A stretch of DNA of 64,000 bases from a virus. Of the stretch, positions 2,276-60,513 are shown in pieces. Below the pieces are notes generated by a model. The model made no database searches. It was given only the letters and a program-made list of their open reading frames with translations, and had not been told where the DNA came from. The stretch lies in UHGV virus genome UHGV-0134778; one strand, 5' to 3'. Positions within the stretch are counted from its first letter, which is position 1. Every line of letters starts with the position of its first letter. The translations under genes and the position numbers were made by a program.

Positions 2276-2347
2276 TTGTTTCCTCTTAATATCTGTGCAC
2301 GGATATCAAACACGCAGTGTAATCATTACACTACACAATTATAACGA

Positions 2348-2899
2348 TTACTGACCACTGTCTGTAACCGCTTTACCAGAATTGGGTGAAGGGAAATGTG
2401 TGGTTATTTCAGCCTTAATTCCCTGAAGATCCTCAAAAGCCCCAATGTCTGTCTCAACAAACCTTACGTTAAATGTCAGCATTACGGTAGCTCTATTTTC
2501 ATACGTCTGCTTATTCAACGGCACCCTTTGAGGTGAAATTGTTGAATTGTTAGAGTAGGCAAAGCACGATCCCAGAGGGAAATACTTGTCATAAAACATT
2601 GGAAGGTTTATTGCTTGCAATACTCTGCTAAGTGCAGCATATGCCCTGCCGCGATAAGCTGTTAACAGATAAGTAACAGTATAACTGTGGGTGACGTAAG
2701 CATTACCCTCCGCATCTTGAAACTCATTATCTTCCCAAGTGGTGGGATTGATCGCCAGGGTTTGCAAAAGTACAAACTCACCTTCCGGCTTCGGTATGGT
2801 AGAGCTTTCTGCCAGAACTACAGTTCTTCCTGTGGCAACCATGACAAGCTTAGCGATGGTTGTTTCAAGATCAGAAAAAACTTTTTCGAAAGCTTCCAT
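2348..2899 (-). CDS. hypothetical virion protein (neck or tail completion)
   Basis: 183-aa ORF in the co-directional late array between capsid and sheath genes. Confidence 0.45.
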   Translation of the reverse strand: MEAFEKVFSDLETTIAKLVMVATGRTVVLAESSTIPKPEGEFVLLQTLAINPTTWEDNEFQDAEGNAYVTHSYTVTYLLTAYRGRAYAALSRVLQAINLPMFYDKYFPLGSCFAYSNNSTISPQRVPLNKQTYENRATVMLTFNVRFVETDIGAFEDLQGIKAEITTHFPSPNSGKAVTDSGQ

Positions 2900-3324
2900 C
2901 AGTTTTCTCCTTCAGGCTCTTCTACCACAAAAAATCTATATCTTCCACCACCAGATGTGACATATGCATCGCATTTTAAAACGGTAAACCATTTCAAGTC
3001 ACCACGGATGTCAGGTAGTTGAATTTGATCAGCCATTGCATATGTTCCTTCATCTGGACTATACAACTTGGTTGATGAGTAAACTGTAAAAGCCTCGTAC
3101 TGTCTGTCACCCTCAGGATTTATCTGGGAGGAGTAATCTTTAGCTGCTCTTCCTGTCAACGGCTGCACAACACACTCTAAGACATCAAACTCTTCATACT
3201 CAAGTTCTAACCCCTCGTTAGCAAAAGGACTGCCAACTGTTTTGTTATACACTCTGTGGCGACCTTTGAATGTTTTACGAGGTATTAGCCTGTTCTTTCC
3301 TATCAGCTTATAACCTGCTGCCAC
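2899..3324 (-). CDS. hypothetical virion protein (head-tail joining region)
   Basis: 141-aa ORF, start/stop overlap with neighbour, late array. Confidence 0.45.
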   Translation of the reverse strand: MAAGYKLIGKNRLIPRKTFKGRHRVYNKTVGSPFANEGLELEYEEFDVLECVVQPLTGRAAKDYSSQINPEGDRQYEAFTVYSSTKLYSPDEGTYAMADQIQLPDIRGDLKWFTVLKCDAYVTSGGGRYRFFVVEEPEGEN

Positions 3325-3343
3325 TCAACCACCCCCTTATTTT

Positions 3344-3814
3344 TTACTGTCCAATTTTAAAGGTTGCAGATTCAAGCAGCACATCGTAATGCCGCATAGC
3401 CTCGTTGAAGCCCTTCTCTTGTGCCCACTGCTCACTAACAGTAGGGTTACTAAACTGACCAGCCTCAATAACAAACTGGATAGCTTTGGCCCCTGTGTCC
3501 CCCATCTGCCTAAGAACAGCCTCTGCACTTGATCCTCTAGCCATAGCTCTCAACAATTTTTCTGTCAAGGTCTGTAGTTGCGTGCTGTGAAATGCAAAGG
3601 CCGTCTCCATGAAATTGCGAACAGGCAGCCCGTTCCAACCGAAGTTGTGAATAGCTGCCAATGTTGCCATATTTAAGCCTGACGGGTGAGGTTCATCATA
3701 AAAGCCGTAGGTTATTGTTTTGCTTTCAAGTTTCACAAGGTCTTTATAAAAGCGATCTAAACGCTTTAGGTTGAACCTTGTTTGACATTTAACCTTTAGC
3801 ATTATATTCCTCAC
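3344..3814 (-). CDS. hypothetical virion protein (head completion or neck)
   Basis: 156-aa ORF in late array. Confidence 0.45.
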   Translation of the reverse strand: MRNIMLKVKCQTRFNLKRLDRFYKDLVKLESKTITYGFYDEPHPSGLNMATLAAIHNFGWNGLPVRNFMETAFAFHSTQLQTLTEKLLRAMARGSSAEAVLRQMGDTGAKAIQFVIEAGQFSNPTVSEQWAQEKGFNEAMRHYDVLLESATFKIGQ

Positions 3815-4535: not shown

Positions 4536-5390
4536 TTATGCCAGTGCAGCCTCAAAATCTTTCATCATATTTTGGAAAGTTTTTGCCTTACTTAAGGTAA
4601 CACCGTGCTCTTTAGCGAAGGTTTGGAGTGCATCTTTCGAACCACTCTTGTCATCTTCGTTGTTAAGAGCTGCGGCTTGCTGCAGTATGGCATCAACATC
4701 GCCGTGAGAAGATCTTGATTCTTGTGCCTGTTCAGGATCCTGCTCAGTACCTTCCGTACCCTCCGGTGCGGTCGGACCTGGTGATTCCTCACTGCCACCA
4801 CCAGGTTCAGTAGGGCCTACAGGTGGCTCCGGCTCTGGTTCAGGTTCTGGGGCTACTGTAGAAGTCAGCCCAAGATTTACAACCTGAGAACGTTTCTTAG
4901 GCCACTCAATGGTGAAAGTCTGGGTATCTTCTGCATAAGCAACATCGCATTGCTCATCGTTTATGGTCACTTTTTTAGGCATCCCTTCAGGGTCCCACAG
5001 ATGGCCCTCTGCCACTGAAACTTTGAAAGCGGCATCTACCTCTTTAAACACTGACGGGGTGAGTGTGATATTGACATCACCGCTTTGCAGTGTTAAAGTG
5101 CTTTCATCAAGGTTCTCTGTGAAGAACAGAAGAATAACACCCATACGGATAGTTGAAATACCAGTATCAATTGGCAGACCTGTGTGTTTTGCAATCTTCT
5201 CGAAGAAGTCTACAATCGTTCTGCATGGATAGTGAACACTGCCAATAACGAACTCTGTTGGTGGCAGCAGGGCTGATAAACCAACATTGATTTCTGGATT
5301 GTATTGTGCTAAAAATTGATAAAAACTTAACTGATTGTTGAAAACTCTTAATAGAGGATCATACTCGACTGGATATACGGCTCTCTTCAC
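4536..5390 (-). CDS. hypothetical capsid-associated protein with PEPEPEPEP linker
   Basis: 284-aa ORF directly downstream of the major capsid gene; low-complexity Pro/Glu linker and acidic region. Confidence 0.5.
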   Translation of the reverse strand: MKRAVYPVEYDPLLRVFNNQLSFYQFLAQYNPEINVGLSALLPPTEFVIGSVHYPCRTIVDFFEKIAKHTGLPIDTGISTIRMGVILLFFTENLDESTLTLQSGDVNITLTPSVFKEVDAAFKVSVAEGHLWDPEGMPKKVTINDEQCDVAYAEDTQTFTIEWPKKRSQVVNLGLTSTVAPEPEPEPEPPVGPTEPGGGSEESPGPTAPEGTEGTEQDPEQAQESRSSHGDVDAILQQAAALNNEDDKSGSKDALQTFAKEHGVTLSKAKTFQNMMKDFEAALA

Positions 5391-5471: not shown

Positions 5472-6479
5472 TTAGTCACCTTTCAGAGTTGCTTTAACAA
5501 CCAGCTCTGGGCGGGTGTTAACTGCCAGCATTGAAGTTTCAGATTCAATCTTCTCTTCACGCAGGTATGCAGAGTGTTTATACCACATGTACAGTTCCTG
5601 TGCAGGGGTATTTGCTTCGTTAACATCATCTGCCGGAGCAAAGTGCAGCTGGAACATCTGATCAATACCCATCGGCAGGATGCGAGCCTCTTTCTTAGGA
5701 ATATTGCCAGAGATATCTTCGATAAAGGTGATACCTTTATGTTCAAACACACGGTATACGCTGTCTTGACCGCCAGCACCCAGACGGCGACGCAGAGGTT
5801 CCTGAGCAGAGCCGTAATAGGTGTATGCCAGTTCTACCAGTGGGTGATGGGTAATAGCACTGAAGAACTCCGGTGAGCACAGAGCTACAATACGATAGCC
5901 AGCTGCGTTATCACCAGCTTGCAGTGCGATGTGCAGACGAGCTTCTTCCAGAACCTCCATAGGATCCTGATCTGCTTTTGCAGGGTCGATCTCAACAGAC
6001 TTCTGAGACACACCCCACAGAGTGTAGTAGTCATACTGACAGGTTGTGTCACCCGGTGCATAGGATTTACCCAGAATAGCCTGGAACAGCGCTTTCTCAC
6101 GCAGTGCTTCATGAGAAACACGGATACGGCGAACAACGCGGGTTACTACGTCCTGAACAGTTTTCGGAGCGTCAGGGGTGAAGTAACGACGGAAGTTCTG
6201 AACATCTGCGGCAGTGATGCCTTTGTCCAGAGGGAAGAACGGGATGTTCAGGTTTTTAACCTGGGCACGTTCACTACCAACGTAGTTACGCTCACCACCA
6301 CGACGGCGTGCCGGAATGTCGGTTACAACTTCATCAACACGCTCGATCTGAGCAATTGTTGAGGTGCCGAGACGGGTTTCGAACAGATCCATACCAGTGA
6401 TCAGTCGGAATTGGCGCGGAACAAGGTCCAGAGTAGCACCTAAATCAACAATGCCAAATTCATCTTTACGAGTAATCAT
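5472..6479 (-). CDS. major capsid protein (lambda gpE-like family, tentative)
   Basis: 335-aa ORF downstream of portal, protease, scaffold and decoration genes; R-RGG and A-L-GK-Y segments resemble lambda E as recalled from memory. Confidence 0.6.
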   Translation of the reverse strand: MITRKDEFGIVDLGATLDLVPRQFRLITGMDLFETRLGTSTIAQIERVDEVVTDIPARRRGGERNYVGSERAQVKNLNIPFFPLDKGITAADVQNFRRYFTPDAPKTVQDVVTRVVRRIRVSHEALREKALFQAILGKSYAPGDTTCQYDYYTLWGVSQKSVEIDPAKADQDPMEVLEEARLHIALQAGDNAAGYRIVALCSPEFFSAITHHPLVELAYTYYGSAQEPLRRRLGAGGQDSVYRVFEHKGITFIEDISGNIPKKEARILPMGIDQMFQLHFAPADDVNEANTPAQELYMWYKHSAYLREEKIESETSMLAVNTRPELVVKATLKGD

Positions 6480-13935: not shown

Positions 13936-14034
13936 GGTGCTAGGTGATGGAATCGAACCACCTATGTATTCAACGACTACCTCGTCTATTTTCAGGATTA
14001 AAAATCCTCGCCCTTGCCAAAGGGCTTACCTAGC
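13936..14034 (-). tRNA. atypical tRNA-like element (99 nt): possible non-canonical tRNA or tRNA pseudogene
   Basis: Perfect 7-bp acceptor stem (GCTAGGT/ACCTAGC), canonical D arm and T arm (GGTGG-TTCGATT-CCATC), but A8-A9 instead of U8, an AGGATT-TTT-AATCCT hairpin in place of a standard anticodon arm, and a ~31-nt insert containing a second hairpin; no CCA encoded. Confidence 0.35.
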
Positions 14035-14428: not shown

Positions 14429-14503
14429 TGGCACCCCGTACTGGACTCGAACCAGTGTCAACGGCTTAGAAGGCCGCTGCTTTATCCACTAAGCTAACAG
14501 GGC
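14429..14503 (-). tRNA. tRNA-Arg (anticodon TCT)
   Basis: Acceptor GCCCTGT/ACGGGGT with two G-U pairs, D arm GCTT/AAGC, anticodon stem-loop GCGGC-CTTCTAA-GCCGT, T arm ACTGG-TTCGAGT-CCAGT, encoded CCA. Confidence 0.8.
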
Positions 14504-14599
14504 ACTGGGTGGCTTTCTTTTACACCTGAGCCGCCAGAAAAGGTGGGAGACCATGTTTATAATATTACACTGTTAGGCAAAGTTTGTCAAGAAAATATT

Positions 14600-14938
14600 T
14601 TAACTATTGCCAACAGGCTGTATTTCTGTGGTAAATGGCATAAAAGGTGCTGGTTTTTCAGCCTCTTCTACTACCACCTCTTCCTCTTCACCAAACATCT
14701 CATCATATTCTTCCTGCATTCGGTCTGCCTTATCAAGAACATACTCTGCAATGCTTTGACGAATATTTTGTTTGGTTTTCGGGTCCAACATCAGCTCTCT
14801 TAAAACTTTGTGAGCTTCTGGAACCATCGCTATAAAAGATTCCTTCATATCAAGAATGTTCTTCTCTAGCTGAATGGCGTTGGACTCCTCTTTCAGAGGT
14901 CTGCCTCTACGGCGACGCTTTTTAGTTGTATCCGCCAT
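14600..14938 (-). CDS. hypothetical basic/acidic protein, possible DNA-binding (KKRRRRGRP N-terminus)
   Basis: ORF-track ORF trimmed to the ATG (MADTTKK...) preceded by GGAGG; Arg/Lys-rich N-terminus with RGRP AT-hook-like motif and acidic C-terminus. Confidence 0.5.
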   Translation of the reverse strand: MADTTKKRRRRGRPLKEESNAIQLEKNILDMKESFIAMVPEAHKVLRELMLDPKTKQNIRQSIAEYVLDKADRMQEEYDEMFGEEEEVVVEEAEKPAPFMPFTTEIQPVGNS

Positions 14939-14966
14939 GTTTCCTCCATTATCACGTGATAGGTGG

Positions 14967-14995
14967 ATTTTATCACGGCAAATACTGATTGTCAA
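14967..14995 (-). promoter_or_regulatory. sigma70-like promoter for the 14600-14938 gene, with a 10-bp palindrome downstream
   Basis: On minus strand TTGACA-N17-TAAAAT; perfect palindrome ATCACGTGAT (14951-14960) lies between the -10 element and the RBS. Confidence 0.5.
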
Positions 14996-15283
14996 GTTCG
15001 CCGCAGGGTGGTATTCCCTGCGACTTGCCCAGCGTCCTGGACCAGCAAGACCCAACAAGTGGGTTACCAGATACCCATTACCGCGCTCTGGCTCGACCTT
15101 ATTACAGGTTGGCTGGGGTCACATCGTCATGTGCTGGCTGCCCCTACCATTTTAAGTGTGGTGCACTATCAAGCCCTCTAAGGGGAACTCAGACTTCTCC
15201 GAACCCTGTTTCAAAGCATCCGGAGATAAAGCCATCAAACTCATCTTTAAATTGGATATTCATCATGATACACGAAAACAACC

Positions 15284-15526
15284 TCATTGTAAAGCACAAA
15301 TAAATAAAACATACTTAATTTGTTTGTTATCGGGCTCAGGGTAGAAGTAGAAGATCTTGCTATCACCAATCTGAACACCACCATCCCAACAACATAAACC
15401 ATAACCAGTATTCATACAAGCTAAGTCGTTGGCAAAATCTATTGCATCATCTAGTGCACGAAATTCACCTTCATCTTCTAAATAATCCTCATTCATGGAA
15501 CGGAAAACGAGCTTAACCTTAAACAT
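15284..15526 (-). CDS. hypothetical protein
   Basis: 80-aa acidic ORF. Confidence 0.45.
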   Translation of the reverse strand: MFKVKLVFRSMNEDYLEDEGEFRALDDAIDFANDLACMNTGYGLCCWDGGVQIGDSKIFYFYPEPDNKQIKYVLFICALQ

Positions 15527-15602
15527 AGCATTACCTGTAGACCTCGTAAGTTAAAATTGTATCACATCATATTGCAGATCTTATCAGGTAACATTATTTT
15601 TG

Positions 15603-15791
15603 TCAACAGATTCCGGCCTTATCCTTCCTGTCTGCGTATTCTTTAATCGCAACCTCACCTGCATTGGTAACCAGATCTTCAAAGTAATTCTCAAGCTCCT
15701 CGTCAATGTCCGGTGACCAGCTCTTTTTCCTGTCAGTGTGAATTGCAGACTTGTTGAACTTATTACAATTCTTTGCTACCGGATTGTTCAT
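15603..15791 (-). CDS. hypothetical protein
   Basis: 62-aa ORF in co-directional array. Confidence 0.3.
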   Translation of the reverse strand: MNNPVAKNCNKFNKSAIHTDRKKSWSPDIDEELENYFEDLVTNAGEVAIKEYADRKDKAGIC

Positions 15792-16380: not shown

Positions 16381-16884
16381 AGCAGCCTCCTCTTCAAGTT
16401 ATAGAAAAACTCACTGTATCGCTTTGTAACGAGCTTTTCTATCAAACTGGTGCGATTGCCTTACTTGGTATAGTTTATATAGCTGTGGAGCGATTTAGGG
16501 GACTTCTTGTCAGTTTCCACACATAACTTTATCCGAACTCGCGCGGGAGGCTCTCAACCGACTCCTTCCGGCGCTGGCAAGCTTTCGTCGGTGGTCCACA
16601 TTAGTGCTCGGCCTTTGGCCTGCGCTATCGCTTCGCTCCCACACATGTTAACAGTCCTGCATGTATGCACTTCTGTTATTGTGTGCACTATGGAGGCCCG
16701 GCATCTCGCCCCCCCCGTAGGCGAGTGCCAATGAAGGGCCGACACTACCCATAATAAGTAATAAATTTAAAACATGGTACTTAGGATCTAGTATATTCTA
16801 CATAAGTTAAGTATATGTACTTTAGTACCATAAGTACTAGATCTTTTATTTTTATTATTTAGTTATTTTAGTTATATTCTTTAT

Positions 16885-43012: not shown

Positions 43013-44062
43013 ATGAATTTAACACCTCGCAGAACCATGGTACACGGCATGAAAGAAAAACAGAACGGTTTCGAACCTATGAGTAATAAAATGTTTGGTA
43101 TGCCGGGCGGTATCATGGAAACATACAGCTACCCAACACCTGTTGTTGACCACGTTCTTTATATCGACGATTTGGAAGACTTACAAGACCATATGTCTCG
43201 TCTGCAGACGATCCGTATGGCTCAGCCGGAAGAAAGCATTCGGGTGATCATCAATAGCCCTGGGGGTTGCGTGCACATTGCAATGGCTTATCTGCAGGCA
43301 TTCCGAGAGTCTCAGGCAAGCGTTGTCGTACACGCTGAAGGGATGTGCTGCTCAGCAGGAACAATCTTATGGCTGGGTTGCAAAGAACGCACTGTGGCTC
43401 CGGACACAGAATTTATGTTCCACTACTATCAAGGTGGCACTTATGGTAACGGTGTGAACATGAATACTCAGGTCAGCTACTGGAAAAAACGTTTTGAACG
43501 CCTGATTGAAAAATACTACGGTGGGGTGCTGACAGAAGATGAGATCGCATCCATCACAGCTGGCGGTGAAGTGTGGTTGGATGGAGAAGAGCTGGCATCT
43601 AGAACTGGTGCTATCATCTTGGACGATGAAAACATTCAGCGCATTCAGAATGGACAGAAACCGAAAAAGCTTTTGGCAAAAAGAGATGAAGAAGGTGTGT
43701 TAGGTGAGGCAGGCCTTCCAGAGATTCACCAATGCACATCTTTGGACGAGCTGGTTCATGCTGTTGAGTCTGCAAAAGAAAATGGTATGAAAGGTGATGT
43801 TCACACTGTGTTCCTGAATCTACAGATGGAGAGTGGTGAGACCGTTAAGATTGCACTAGGTGAGATTACCTCGGAAGATCTGCAGCGATTCTCTGTGGTA
43901 GAGCTTCAGGACATTTTGTCCCAATTGAAAACTACCCTGAACGGAGGTGAAGAAGTTCAGGTGAAAGATAAGACTCGCAAGCGTCTGGTGGACAATATTA
44001 TTAAAACAGCAAAAGAGCTTAATGAAAAAATCCTGGGCGCAGGAATTGTCGAAGAAGCTTAA
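43013..44062 (+). CDS. ClpP-like serine protease with ~140-aa C-terminal extension
   Basis: ClpP/S14-like core: IINSPGG, active-site-like GMCCSAG, conserved His and Asp positions (FMFHYYQGG; EVWLDGEE). Confidence 0.6.
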   Translation: MNLTPRRTMVHGMKEKQNGFEPMSNKMFGMPGGIMETYSYPTPVVDHVLYIDDLEDLQDHMSRLQTIRMAQPEESIRVIINSPGGCVHIAMAYLQAFRESQASVVVHAEGMCCSAGTILWLGCKERTVAPDTEFMFHYYQGGTYGNGVNMNTQVSYWKKRFERLIEKYYGGVLTEDEIASITAGGEVWLDGEELASRTGAIILDDENIQRIQNGQKPKKLLAKRDEEGVLGEAGLPEIHQCTSLDELVHAVESAKENGMKGDVHTVFLNLQMESGETVKIALGEITSEDLQRFSVVELQDILSQLKTTLNGGEEVQVKDKTRKRLVDNIIKTAKELNEKILGAGIVEEA

Positions 44063-59984: not shown

Positions 59985-60201
59985 AGTGTTTTCCTCTCTC
60001 CTGGTTGTTGTGTGGGCACTTTTGCCCCTTCAAGATAAATGTTACCTCACCCCATGGCAGATGTCAACGGTTTTTATAGTTCTTATATGACAGGCAGGCC
60101 CGGTGATTGTCTCCCCCTGTTCCCAAGTGCCGCCCGTTTAATAAGAATAGCAAAAGGGGCCGAACAAGTCAACCCCAAAATCAGTACCAAAACACTTTTA
60201 T

Positions 60202-60513
60202 TTATACGGTCCGATCATTGGCCTTTGTCCAGGACCTGGCGATCCGTTTCCCGGTCACCTGGAACGGAGGCTGCATTGTGTGTAATGAGTCCAGAGTAAG
60301 GGAGGACCGTTTACGGCGTATCTTCAGGATCGCTAACGTATTGTCCATCTCACGGCCAGGTCCTGGGCGGTATGGTGTGCCTCCAGCGTTAAGGTTGATG
60401 ATCTCATGTATTGAGATCCGGCGTTGTTTTGCTTCCGCATCTTTGAAGATAGCCAGCGGAGGCGCTATGCGTTGCCGATACCAATCTAAAACGGTTGGCG
60501 TAATAGCGATCAT
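60202..60513 (-). CDS. hypothetical protein
   Basis: 103-aa ORF whose ATG overlaps the stop of the upstream gene; GC-richer than neighbours. Confidence 0.35.
   Translation of the reverse strand: MIAITPTVLDWYRQRIAPPLAIFKDAEAKQRRISIHEIINLNAGGTPYRPGPGREMDNTLAILKIRRKRSSLTLDSLHTMQPPFQVTGKRIARSWTKANDRTV

Follow-up and report, generated by a model that had tools for sequence, protein, structure and literature searches.

The GC-rich island of virus genome UHGV-0134778 carries one copy of a widespread, unannotated phage RNA motif

What does a phage encode in an intergenic island rich in guanine and cytosine (GC)? The question is raised by positions 14997–15283 of the 64,000-nucleotide (nt) stretch of UHGV virus genome UHGV-0134778 analysed here, hereafter the window. 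A first-pass annotation had described ~290 base pairs (bp) richer in GC than their surroundings and overlapping plus-strand open reading frames (ORFs) that lack ribosome-binding sites. It suggested a structured non-coding RNA, a remnant of acquired DNA or a recombination target. Here we show that, read on the minus strand, the island is a locus of non-coding RNA, with a GC-rich core formed by one copy of a widespread phage motif left unannotated in every record inspected.

The conserved element was revealed by comparison with related phage genomes, a step proposed in the first-pass annotation. Between 14500 and 15700, 119 records from phages of the genus Vequintavirus (rV5/FV3-like myophages of E. 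coli) match the window at 96–99.8% identity. In the annotated relatives, all genes around the island are on the minus strand. A sensitive BLAST search with the island showed that a 45-nt stretch, 15072–15116, is 89–96% identical to an unannotated intergenic site in ~560 T4-like phages. These T4-like phages share no other DNA similarity with the window; the 119 Vequintavirus records match the full island. A covariance model of the motif, R1, matches the window once, at 15056–15145 on the minus strand (71.2 bits, E 2e-15, model positions 1–99); in each of the phage loci searched, which span up to about 14 kb, it likewise finds a single copy. The window sequence is in the R1 seed alignment, so this score does not count as independent evidence, unlike the 45-nt match to T4-like phages.

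The motif begins with a variable hairpin, P1, within which some copies have a second hairpin, P2. Next comes Pa, a short helix (CCN/NGG, one G being bulged) that closes a three-way junction. The arms of the junction are P3 (ACCU-GUAAUA-AGGU) and P4 (GCC-N5GC-GGU), and its joining strands, CGA and AA, are near-invariant. The 3′ tail reaches back to the P1 loop and pairs with its 5′ portion, which makes the fold a pseudoknot. All of the R1 helices can be formed by the window copy (GGGG/CCCC, CCA/U(G)GG, ACCU/AGGU, GCC/GGU and GCCAG/CUGGU). Its parts are as follows; coordinates run 5′ to 3′ along the minus-strand RNA and hence descend.

15144–15141 with 15118–15115, minus strand: helix P1, GGGG paired with CCCC.
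15138–15134 with 15070–15066, minus strand: pseudoknot, 5′ strand GCCAG and 3′ strand CUGGU.
15133–15129 with 15124–15120, minus strand: hairpin P2, CACAU paired with AUGUG.
C15112–G15074, C15111–G15075 and A15110–U15077, minus strand: closing helix Pa, with G15076 bulged.
15109–15106, 15105–15100 and 15099–15096, minus strand: P3, made up of ACCU, the loop GUAAUA and AGGU.
15095–15093 and 15079–15078, minus strand: junction strands CGA and AA.
15092–15090, 15089–15083 and 15082–15080, minus strand: P4, made up of GCC, the loop AGAGCGC and GGU.

Alignment across lineages identified ~40 near-invariant nt (CCA-ACCU-GUAAUA-AGGU-CGA-GCC-N5GC-GGU-AA-UGGG). Between lineages the hexaloop also occurs as GUAAAA, AUAAUA, GUAGCA or GUAGAA. 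The flanking helices are unrelated in sequence from one lineage to another and always complementary. Thus P1, of 4–7 bp, is found as GGGG/CCCC, UGGGAA/UUCCCG, AAAGG/CCUUU, AAAGC/GCUUU, AAAGA/UCUUU, GUGG/CCAC, GAAUG/CAUUC, GAGUG/CACUC or UGUGUAU/AUACACA. For 30 sequences aligned with MAFFT, 98.2% of cells were paired, compared with 86.4% in shuffles. The covariation score was 0.349 against 0.132, with 0 of 500 shuffles reaching the observed value, and slid controls gave at most 58%. For 41 distinct sequences, spanning at least seven lineages and aligned with the model as guide, 98.5–98.9% of cells were paired, against 85.0% when shuffled (again reached by 0 of 500 shuffles); the covariation score was 0.415–0.422 against 0.148, and slid controls gave at most 54%. 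Changes on both sides were seen for all five modelled P1 pairs, and for two of the three Pa pairs, in the 41 sequences.

Helix Pa is informative in two respects. The pair adjoining P3 is A-U (26 sequences), U·G (six), U-A (five) or C-G (four), and is never unpaired. Phages Pylas and DE16 have CUA...UGAG in place of CCA...UGGG; with the conserved G bulged, Pa is fully paired in these copies too and shows another compensatory pair. Overall, the CCA/UGG pairing covaries, its other versions being CCU/AGG, CCC/GGG and CUA/U(G)AG. Hence, it is the pairing that is conserved and not the identity of CCA. The pseudoknot strands also differ per lineage and stay complementary (GCCAG/CUGGU, CUG/CAG, CCG/CGG, CACAC/GUGUG, AAACCA/UGGUUU, CGGA/UCCG and CGGU/GCCG). 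Our claim for this pairing rests on register-fixed pair counts in type-B sequences, one of the two T4-like types. Here, the three core pairs were paired in all 16 sequences, with pair types of CG12/AU3/GC1 and GC12/CG4. A naive search for the longest complement did not separate the pseudoknot significantly from shuffled tails (4.12 versus 3.82 bp).

The variation also identifies the strand. A G·U pair is invariant in P4, and U·G pairs occur in Pa and P1. Read from the plus strand, such pairs would turn into A·C mismatches; hence, the functional strand is the gene strand, which is the minus strand of the window. They argue for selection on RNA rather than duplex DNA, and the recombination target first suggested for the island found no direct support. 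Judged by these alignments, this is a real, strongly constrained, pseudoknotted RNA motif. The suggestion of a structured non-coding RNA is therefore strongly supported, by a covarying motif shared with unrelated phages and on the minus strand, not the plus.

The remaining properties of the island were then compared with the initial description. A sliding-window calculation confirmed the GC peak. For 14996–15283 the GC content is 0.507, compared with a mean of 0.428 for the window (standard deviation 0.033, 288-nt segments), and 1.9% of segments of equal length are as high. The excess is limited to 14997–15200 (0.559); the best 200-nt segment of the island reaches 0.56, which is matched by 0.16% of 200-nt segments. 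The 3′ third on the plus strand, 15201–15283, is AT-rich (0.373). Three overlapping plus-strand ORFs are indeed present (93 amino acids, 14874–15155; 72 amino acids, 14963–15181; 104 amino acids, 14989–15303), as are two tiny minus-strand ORFs. Reading the sequence, we saw no GGAG-type ribosome-binding site ahead of the island ORFs. Relatives that are 96–99% identical have 2-nt and 3-nt insertions, and a 10-nt deletion, within the plus-strand ORFs. Hence, the island ORFs are not conserved reading frames. GenBank records have differing, mutually inconsistent ‘hypothetical proteins’ at the island, or no annotation. The frame-breaking indels and inconsistent annotations, together with frame differences among T4-like phages, ruled out a protein-coding gene, and no conserved one was seen in homologues. 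Comparison of the island with 5,426 complete E. coli genomes, using BLAST, gave no match.

The island lies, on the minus strand, downstream of gene 15526–15284 and upstream of the promoter of gene 14938–14600. The families of the neighbouring rV5 proteins are all of unknown function. Along the RNA strand we found a promoter-like site, an AT-rich leader, a hairpin, the motif, three further hairpins and the next promoter.

15283–14997, minus strand: the intergenic, non-coding island, from the stop codon of gene 15526–15284 to the −35 box of the next promoter.
15293–15265, minus strand: promoter-like TTTACA-N17-TATCAT, with 10 of 12 consensus matches, overlapping the last codons of the upstream gene.
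15225–15197, minus strand: upstream hairpin CUCCGGAU...(loop)...GGGUUCGGAG, from the fold and from substitutions in relative L050.
15144–15066, minus strand: the conserved motif, 79 nt, from the covariance model, helix covariation and the BLAST match to T4-like phages.
15064–15050, minus strand: hairpin ACCCA-CUUGU-UGGGU, from the fold.
15049–15024, minus strand: hairpin with outer stem CUUG/CAAG and inner stem CCAG-GACG-CUGG, from a single-sequence fold alone.
15022–15002, minus strand: hairpin CGCAGGG-AAUACCA-CCCUGCG, 6 nt ahead of the −35 box.
14995–14967, minus strand: promoter TTGACA-N17-TAAAAT of gene 14938–14600, with 11 of 12 matches and an extended TG before the −10 box.

The last of these, with boxes at 14995–14990 (TTGACA) and 14972–14967 (TAAAAT), is the promoter noted in the first-pass annotation, and the island is directly upstream of it. 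From the TTTACA-N17-TATCAT site, an island-specific transcript could start near 15258. In relative L050 the −10 box of this site is TATGAT rather than TATCAT, which still has five of six matches. The same relative has two substitutions in the 3′ arm of hairpin 15225–15197, converting G-C to G·U and U·G to U-A. Hence, only a minus-strand RNA would keep this hairpin paired. The ACCCA of hairpin 15064–15050 could alternatively pair with UGGGU of the motif (15077–15073). In relative L053 a 10-nt deletion takes the loop and 3′ arm of this hairpin, which is therefore dispensable. Hairpin 15022–15002 is followed by GCGAAC and then the −35 box. There is no U-tract and so it is not an intrinsic terminator. 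We rejected such a role for the island as a whole, which has no GC-rich hairpin with a U-tract; a scan of both strands detected no terminator-like site.

How widely is the motif distributed? A BLAST search with a type-C copy, a version of the motif described below, matched 980 of 50,697 GenBank phage records (about 2%). Among the 30 type-C matches listed, none had a feature accounting for the match (28 had no feature or were in an unannotated record). We also scanned IMG/VR, JGI metagenomes and 185,579 bacterial and archaeal genomes for exact patterns. Copies occurred only in phage-like contigs, and the core pattern had no match in the bacterial and archaeal genomes. GC-rich chance matches (L032–35, L043/45 and L051) were discarded. 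At least seven lineages carry the motif: rV5-like, T4-like type A, T4-like type B, type C and three singleton contigs (L028, L029 and L057). Type C is found in 47-kb Klebsiella siphophage-like contigs, in Schitoviridae (N4-like; Klebsiella phage Pylas, KpCHEMY26) and in Phapecoctavirus (DE16, phiWec188, SF1-1). The bacterial hosts of phages with the motif are Escherichia, Shigella, Klebsiella, Yersinia and Salmonella. Full-text keyword searches of the searchable literature, and a search with the core sequence string, found no description of it.

Near-identical type-C copies, including flanks, occur in a siphophage, an N4-like phage and Phapecoctavirus. Judging by these copies, the motif has clearly moved between phage families. 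It is also patchy among close relatives, being absent from KP591P1. The idea that the island derives from acquired DNA is therefore supported in part. Conversely, it is not a decaying remnant, given ~40 near-invariant nt and compensatory changes in its helices.

Six lineages have the motif inside or adjoining a tRNA array of the same orientation, within long untranslated stretches. Only in the T4-like phages does it stand apart from the tRNA cluster. Each lineage has different genes around the motif, and the orientation of the motif always matches local transcription.

14503–13692 of the window, minus strand: seven-gene tRNA array, starting 560 nt downstream of the motif, with its own promoter TTGACA-N17-TAATAT at 14590–14562.
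L027/L031: motif 240 nt upstream of four tRNAs, in a 900-nt non-coding region.
L057: motif 20 nt after four tRNAs, with a terminator ~270 nt later.
L028: motif 260 nt after tRNA-Pro, with an intrinsic terminator 25 nt later.
Pylas: motif 690 nt after six tRNAs, in a 1-kb non-coding stretch.
DE16: motif between tRNA-Thr and tRNA-Gly, in a 10-tRNA array.
L027 5104–6000 (minus strand), L061 (Pylas) 2336–3353 and L062 (DE16) 2433–2935: type-C module regions.

The untranslated regions of type-C phages consist of hairpin-closed modules split by repeated junction sequences (..AUUUCCGUUGUG.. and ..CACAACAGGUAAU..), and the motif is one such module. A canonical T-arm, GGUUCGAUUCC, is present in one module that neighbours the motif in type-C phages. 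In Pylas, the module that comes after the motif has a canonical T-arm (GCGGUUCGAUUCCGC), and ARAGORN calls no tRNA there. Within the array of the window, ARAGORN identified a 99-nt ‘tRNA-???’ with a four-base anticodon at 13936–14034 on the minus strand, where the Rfam tRNA model scores 35.5 bits. It is annotated as tRNA-Lys in one relative, is omitted in another, and may be an intron-containing or degenerate tRNA.

In phage T4 (NC_000866) the motif is 99 nt in length and located at 64840–64938 on the minus strand, directly after the denV stop codon (L059 4341–4439). The annotated start of vs.8 (record 64912) is inside the motif, and the 3′ two-thirds of the motif is under the annotated 5′ end of vs.8. 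The conserved vs.8 start, MRTFLTG..., is ~120 nt further downstream. Upstream of vs.8 the T4 frame is open only through a local ~10-nt duplication (cttatagag); in other T4-like phages it is out of frame or closed. The frame between the motif and the MRTFLTG... codon thus differs among T4-like phages, and so the stretch is not coding. In the T4-like copies examined, the motif is 60–80 nt upstream of the vs.8 start, whatever the upstream gene; the exceptions are one deletion mutant and two variants. The vs.8 protein (phrog_1488) is a P-loop protein of unknown function, with homologues only in T4-like phages. The deletion mutant is T4 clone T4_7t1 (OL964745; L003 2440–2585), in which vs.8 to vs.3 are lost and the motif is now beside the regB promoter. 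Its deletion junction is ~5–10 nt (within about 15 nt) after the 3′ strand of the pseudoknot (after ...AAAUGGAC). A separate sequence, AUGGAC-N7-8-AUGYGCCANGGAAUGGCCC, is conserved 15–50 nt downstream of the motif in both T4-like types (e.g. L059 4300–4345). Only a 4-bp hairpin, GCCA/UGGC, is predicted for it, and a 1-nt length difference in L011 shifts its frame. Hence, it is not a conserved peptide.

We next consider known classes of element. The Rfam search proposed in the first-pass annotation, done with Rfam 15 (4227 models), found only tRNAs in the window at the gathering threshold. That no family matched the island could, alone, have been read as refuting a structured RNA. At E ≤ 10, 14850–15400 gave chance-level matches to small nucleolar RNAs and traJ, well below gathering scores, and three T4-like loci searched at E ≤ 5 gave nothing at the motif. 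Neither ARAGORN nor RF00005 called a tRNA or tRNA-like element in 14997–15283. Possible resemblances to a class-II tRNA D-arm, a tRNA-Tyr anticodon loop and an RNase P ‘NCCA’ substrate were set aside. Similarly, GCGGUAAU resembles the 530 loop of 16S rRNA, and GUAAUA resembles the helix 44 (H44) loop of 23S rRNA; we rejected rRNA mimicry, since the matches were no better than for shuffled cores. Thus, the best local alignment of the rV5 core to E. coli 16S rRNA scored 23, equal to the 95th percentile of the shuffled set. Cores from T4 and from type C (L027) were at or below the shuffled median, and the L029 core had its best score, 24, to 23S rRNA and not the 530 loop. A put-like processive antiterminator does not fit the operon-end sites just before terminators (L028 and L057). 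A ribonucleoprotein with the vs.8 protein was rejected, because vs.8 is restricted to T4-like phages.

Three other systems share some properties with the motif. Riboswitch aptamers with three-way junctions (purine and tetrahydrofolate) similarly have a small junction, invariant joining strands and loops and a closing pseudoknot. Conversely, the arms of the motif are only 3–4 bp, the genes downstream of it are of no single class, we recognised no expression platform, and no Rfam riboswitch model matches it. A classical riboswitch is thus unlikely. The T4 tRNA cluster contains ‘species 1’ and ‘species 2’ (rnaC and rnaD), stable, structured, non-tRNA RNAs of unknown function that are co-transcribed with it. 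They resemble the motif, by description only, as small structured phage RNAs beside tRNA genes; the motif differs in being between denV and vs.8, presumably ~5–6 kb from the T4 tRNA cluster, and in being shared far beyond T4-like phages. Promoter-early stem-loop (PeSL) cassettes, which are a simple stem-loop with a promoter and are thought to act in DNA recombination, were reportedly described for T4-type phages by Arbiol, Comeau and Krisch in 2010. The motif is similarly just upstream of an early-type promoter (here, and at regB in the T4 deletion mutant), at boundaries of small early genes. However, it is a multi-helix pseudoknot with RNA-type covariation, and most lineages have no adjacent promoter.

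Our favoured reading, which we hold tentatively, is that the motif is an autonomous, stably folded RNA module of tRNA-type transcription units that acts as RNA. The RNA would be made, and kept, as an autonomous module of the untranslated, tRNA-type ‘stable RNA’ units of phages. Here, the transcript may come from the promoter-like site at 15293–15265 or from read-through of the upstream gene. Its action would not depend on the genes around it. Catalysis, or contact with a partner conserved across Enterobacteriaceae hosts (a small ligand, or a protein or RNA of the host), would take place at the invariant three-way junction, for which P1, P2 and the pseudoknot, all of them covarying, would be no more than a scaffold. 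A more doubtful extension is that the motif is a new RNA class, being either a processing or self-cleaving ribozyme with a new active site or a decoy or sponge, which spread between families as a tRNA-array cassette. As a decoy, the junction would capture a conserved host factor such as a tRNA-directed defence nuclease or RNA-processing enzyme. Several points weigh against an autonomous stable RNA. Folded as single sequences, neither the motif (z = −0.88) nor the island (z = −1.82) is exceptionally stable. Since P3, P4 and the junction never vary, helices P3 and P4 are backed by complementarity alone. Mimicry of the 16S 530 loop or 23S H44, the single partner candidate tested, was at chance level. 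In the window a promoter and a protein gene stand between the motif and the tRNA array. The constant place of the motif just upstream of vs.8 in T4-like phages also fits a cis-acting leader. Finally, we infer both transcription of the island and a discrete stable RNA species from sequence alone.

Of the alternatives, a ribozyme is the likeliest, followed by a cis-acting leader and then by a DNA-level cassette. It is unlikely, though conceivable, that the motif is a self-cleaving or processing ribozyme of a new class, cutting polycistronic tRNA or mRNA precursors. Its invariant core in junctions and loops, surrounded by freely covarying stems, would suit such a role, as would the lack of a consistent gene association and a location in or beside tRNA arrays, where processing is needed. 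There is also a precedent, since hepatitis delta virus (HDV)-like (theta) ribozymes adjoin phage tRNAs in gut phages (PMC10879173). The strand order of the motif (P1 5′, second-helix 5′, hairpin, P1 3′, branched domain, second-helix 3′) is compatible with the nested double pseudoknot of HDV-like ribozymes, and variable stems surround a conserved core. However, P1 of the motif is only 4–7 bp, its first pair is not G·U and no P1.1 could be assigned. HDV-like ribozymes have a catalytic cytosine at the first J4/2 position, where no substitution is tolerated (PMC10879173). Every lineage of the motif has U or A at this position, or G when the bulge is left out of the model; the tails after the closing helix are UAU, UAAAUA, UUUACAUA, UAAGUA, AAAACA, U and UA. 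The hairpin equivalent to P3/L3 is missing from type-C copies (L027/L031, Pylas and DE16) and from L057, which have 5–7 unpaired nt instead. Moreover, the motif conserves the branched domain that, as P4, is dispensable in HDV-like ribozymes. We therefore rejected an HDV-like ribozyme, despite the similar topology. For ribozymes in general, no Rfam family matched even at E ≤ 10 and no cleavage site could be inferred. We also consider it improbable that the motif is a regulatory leader, either riboswitch or protein-binding operator, of the downstream gene (vs.8 in T4-like phages and 14938–14600 here). The regular spacing ahead of vs.8, outside the deletion mutant and two variants, is what a leader would show. 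Three-way junctions joined by invariant strands are characteristic of aptamers, and the island has mutually exclusive hairpins (UGGGU/ACCCA/UGGGU). Against this, no vs.8 homologue is encoded in the window, where a full promoter separates the motif from the next gene. Elsewhere, what follows the motif is a terminator (L028), or tRNAs or other non-coding RNA (DE16, L027 and L057). Since downstream features vary in this way (vs.8; a promoter and unrelated gene; tRNAs; a terminator), and no conserved structure masks the vs.8 ribosome-binding site in T4-like phages, we did not assign the motif to the riboswitches or cis-acting leaders.

Might the element instead act as DNA, with no RNA function? 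It could be a recombination hot-spot, a PeSL-like boundary of mobile cassettes, or a nuclease or homing target. This would account for its patchy occurrence among close relatives, and for near-identical type-C copies, with flanks, in three unrelated phage families. It adjoins early promoters here and, at regB, in the T4 deletion mutant, whose deletion endpoint is near the pseudoknot 3′ strand. We nevertheless regard a DNA element as highly improbable. Compensatory changes and one-strand G·U pairs keep the helices, which selection on duplex DNA would not do. Furthermore, orientation follows local transcription, and we found no terminal repeats and no associated nuclease gene. Least probable of all, to the point that we give it very little credence, is ordinary spacer: a decaying, GC-rich acquired remnant or a small unrecognised protein gene. 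The GC content is unlike that of the surroundings, and some GenBank records do call hypothetical proteins. Conversely, ~40 near-invariant nt across at least seven lineages, with variation that preserves structure, contradict a spacer. The ORF calls are inconsistent and broken by indels, and no bacterial source was found among the 5,426 E. coli or 185,579 prokaryotic genomes.

The motif has consequences beyond this locus. T4, the best-studied phage, carries an unrecognised 99-nt element with a core conserved close to the level of rRNA and a pseudoknot that covaries. Recurrence in rV5-, T4-, phAPEC8-, N4-like and siphoviral phages, mostly within tRNA arrays, points to a general RNA function, needed or exchanged by virulent enterobacterial phages. 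Because T4 genetics and in vitro RNA assays are applicable, the motif is a tractable handle on the role of non-tRNA RNAs in phage tRNA clusters. Gene calls can also be corrected, namely the T4 vs.8 start and spurious Vequintavirus ORFs, and covariance model R1 can annotate about 2% of phage genomes.

Two further observations concern the window and its relatives. Eighteen ‘Campylobacter phage’ records (MG0656xx; host Campylobacter jejuni) are 96–99% identical to E. coli rV5-like phages over 14500–15700, which suggests that they are mislabelled or contaminant sequences. The window also contains a second GC-rich, ORF-poor intergenic stretch, at 16385–16790 on the minus strand. This has no Rfam match at the gathering threshold and no match outside the same 119 Vequintavirus records, in which it is 90–99% conserved and mostly unannotated. 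Further GC peaks (0.545–0.58 in 200-nt segments) are at 4600–4962, 5734–6440, 43178–43418 and 60182–60500. With a 200-nt peak of 0.605, the highest in the window, the stretch at 16385–16790 may be another structured RNA.

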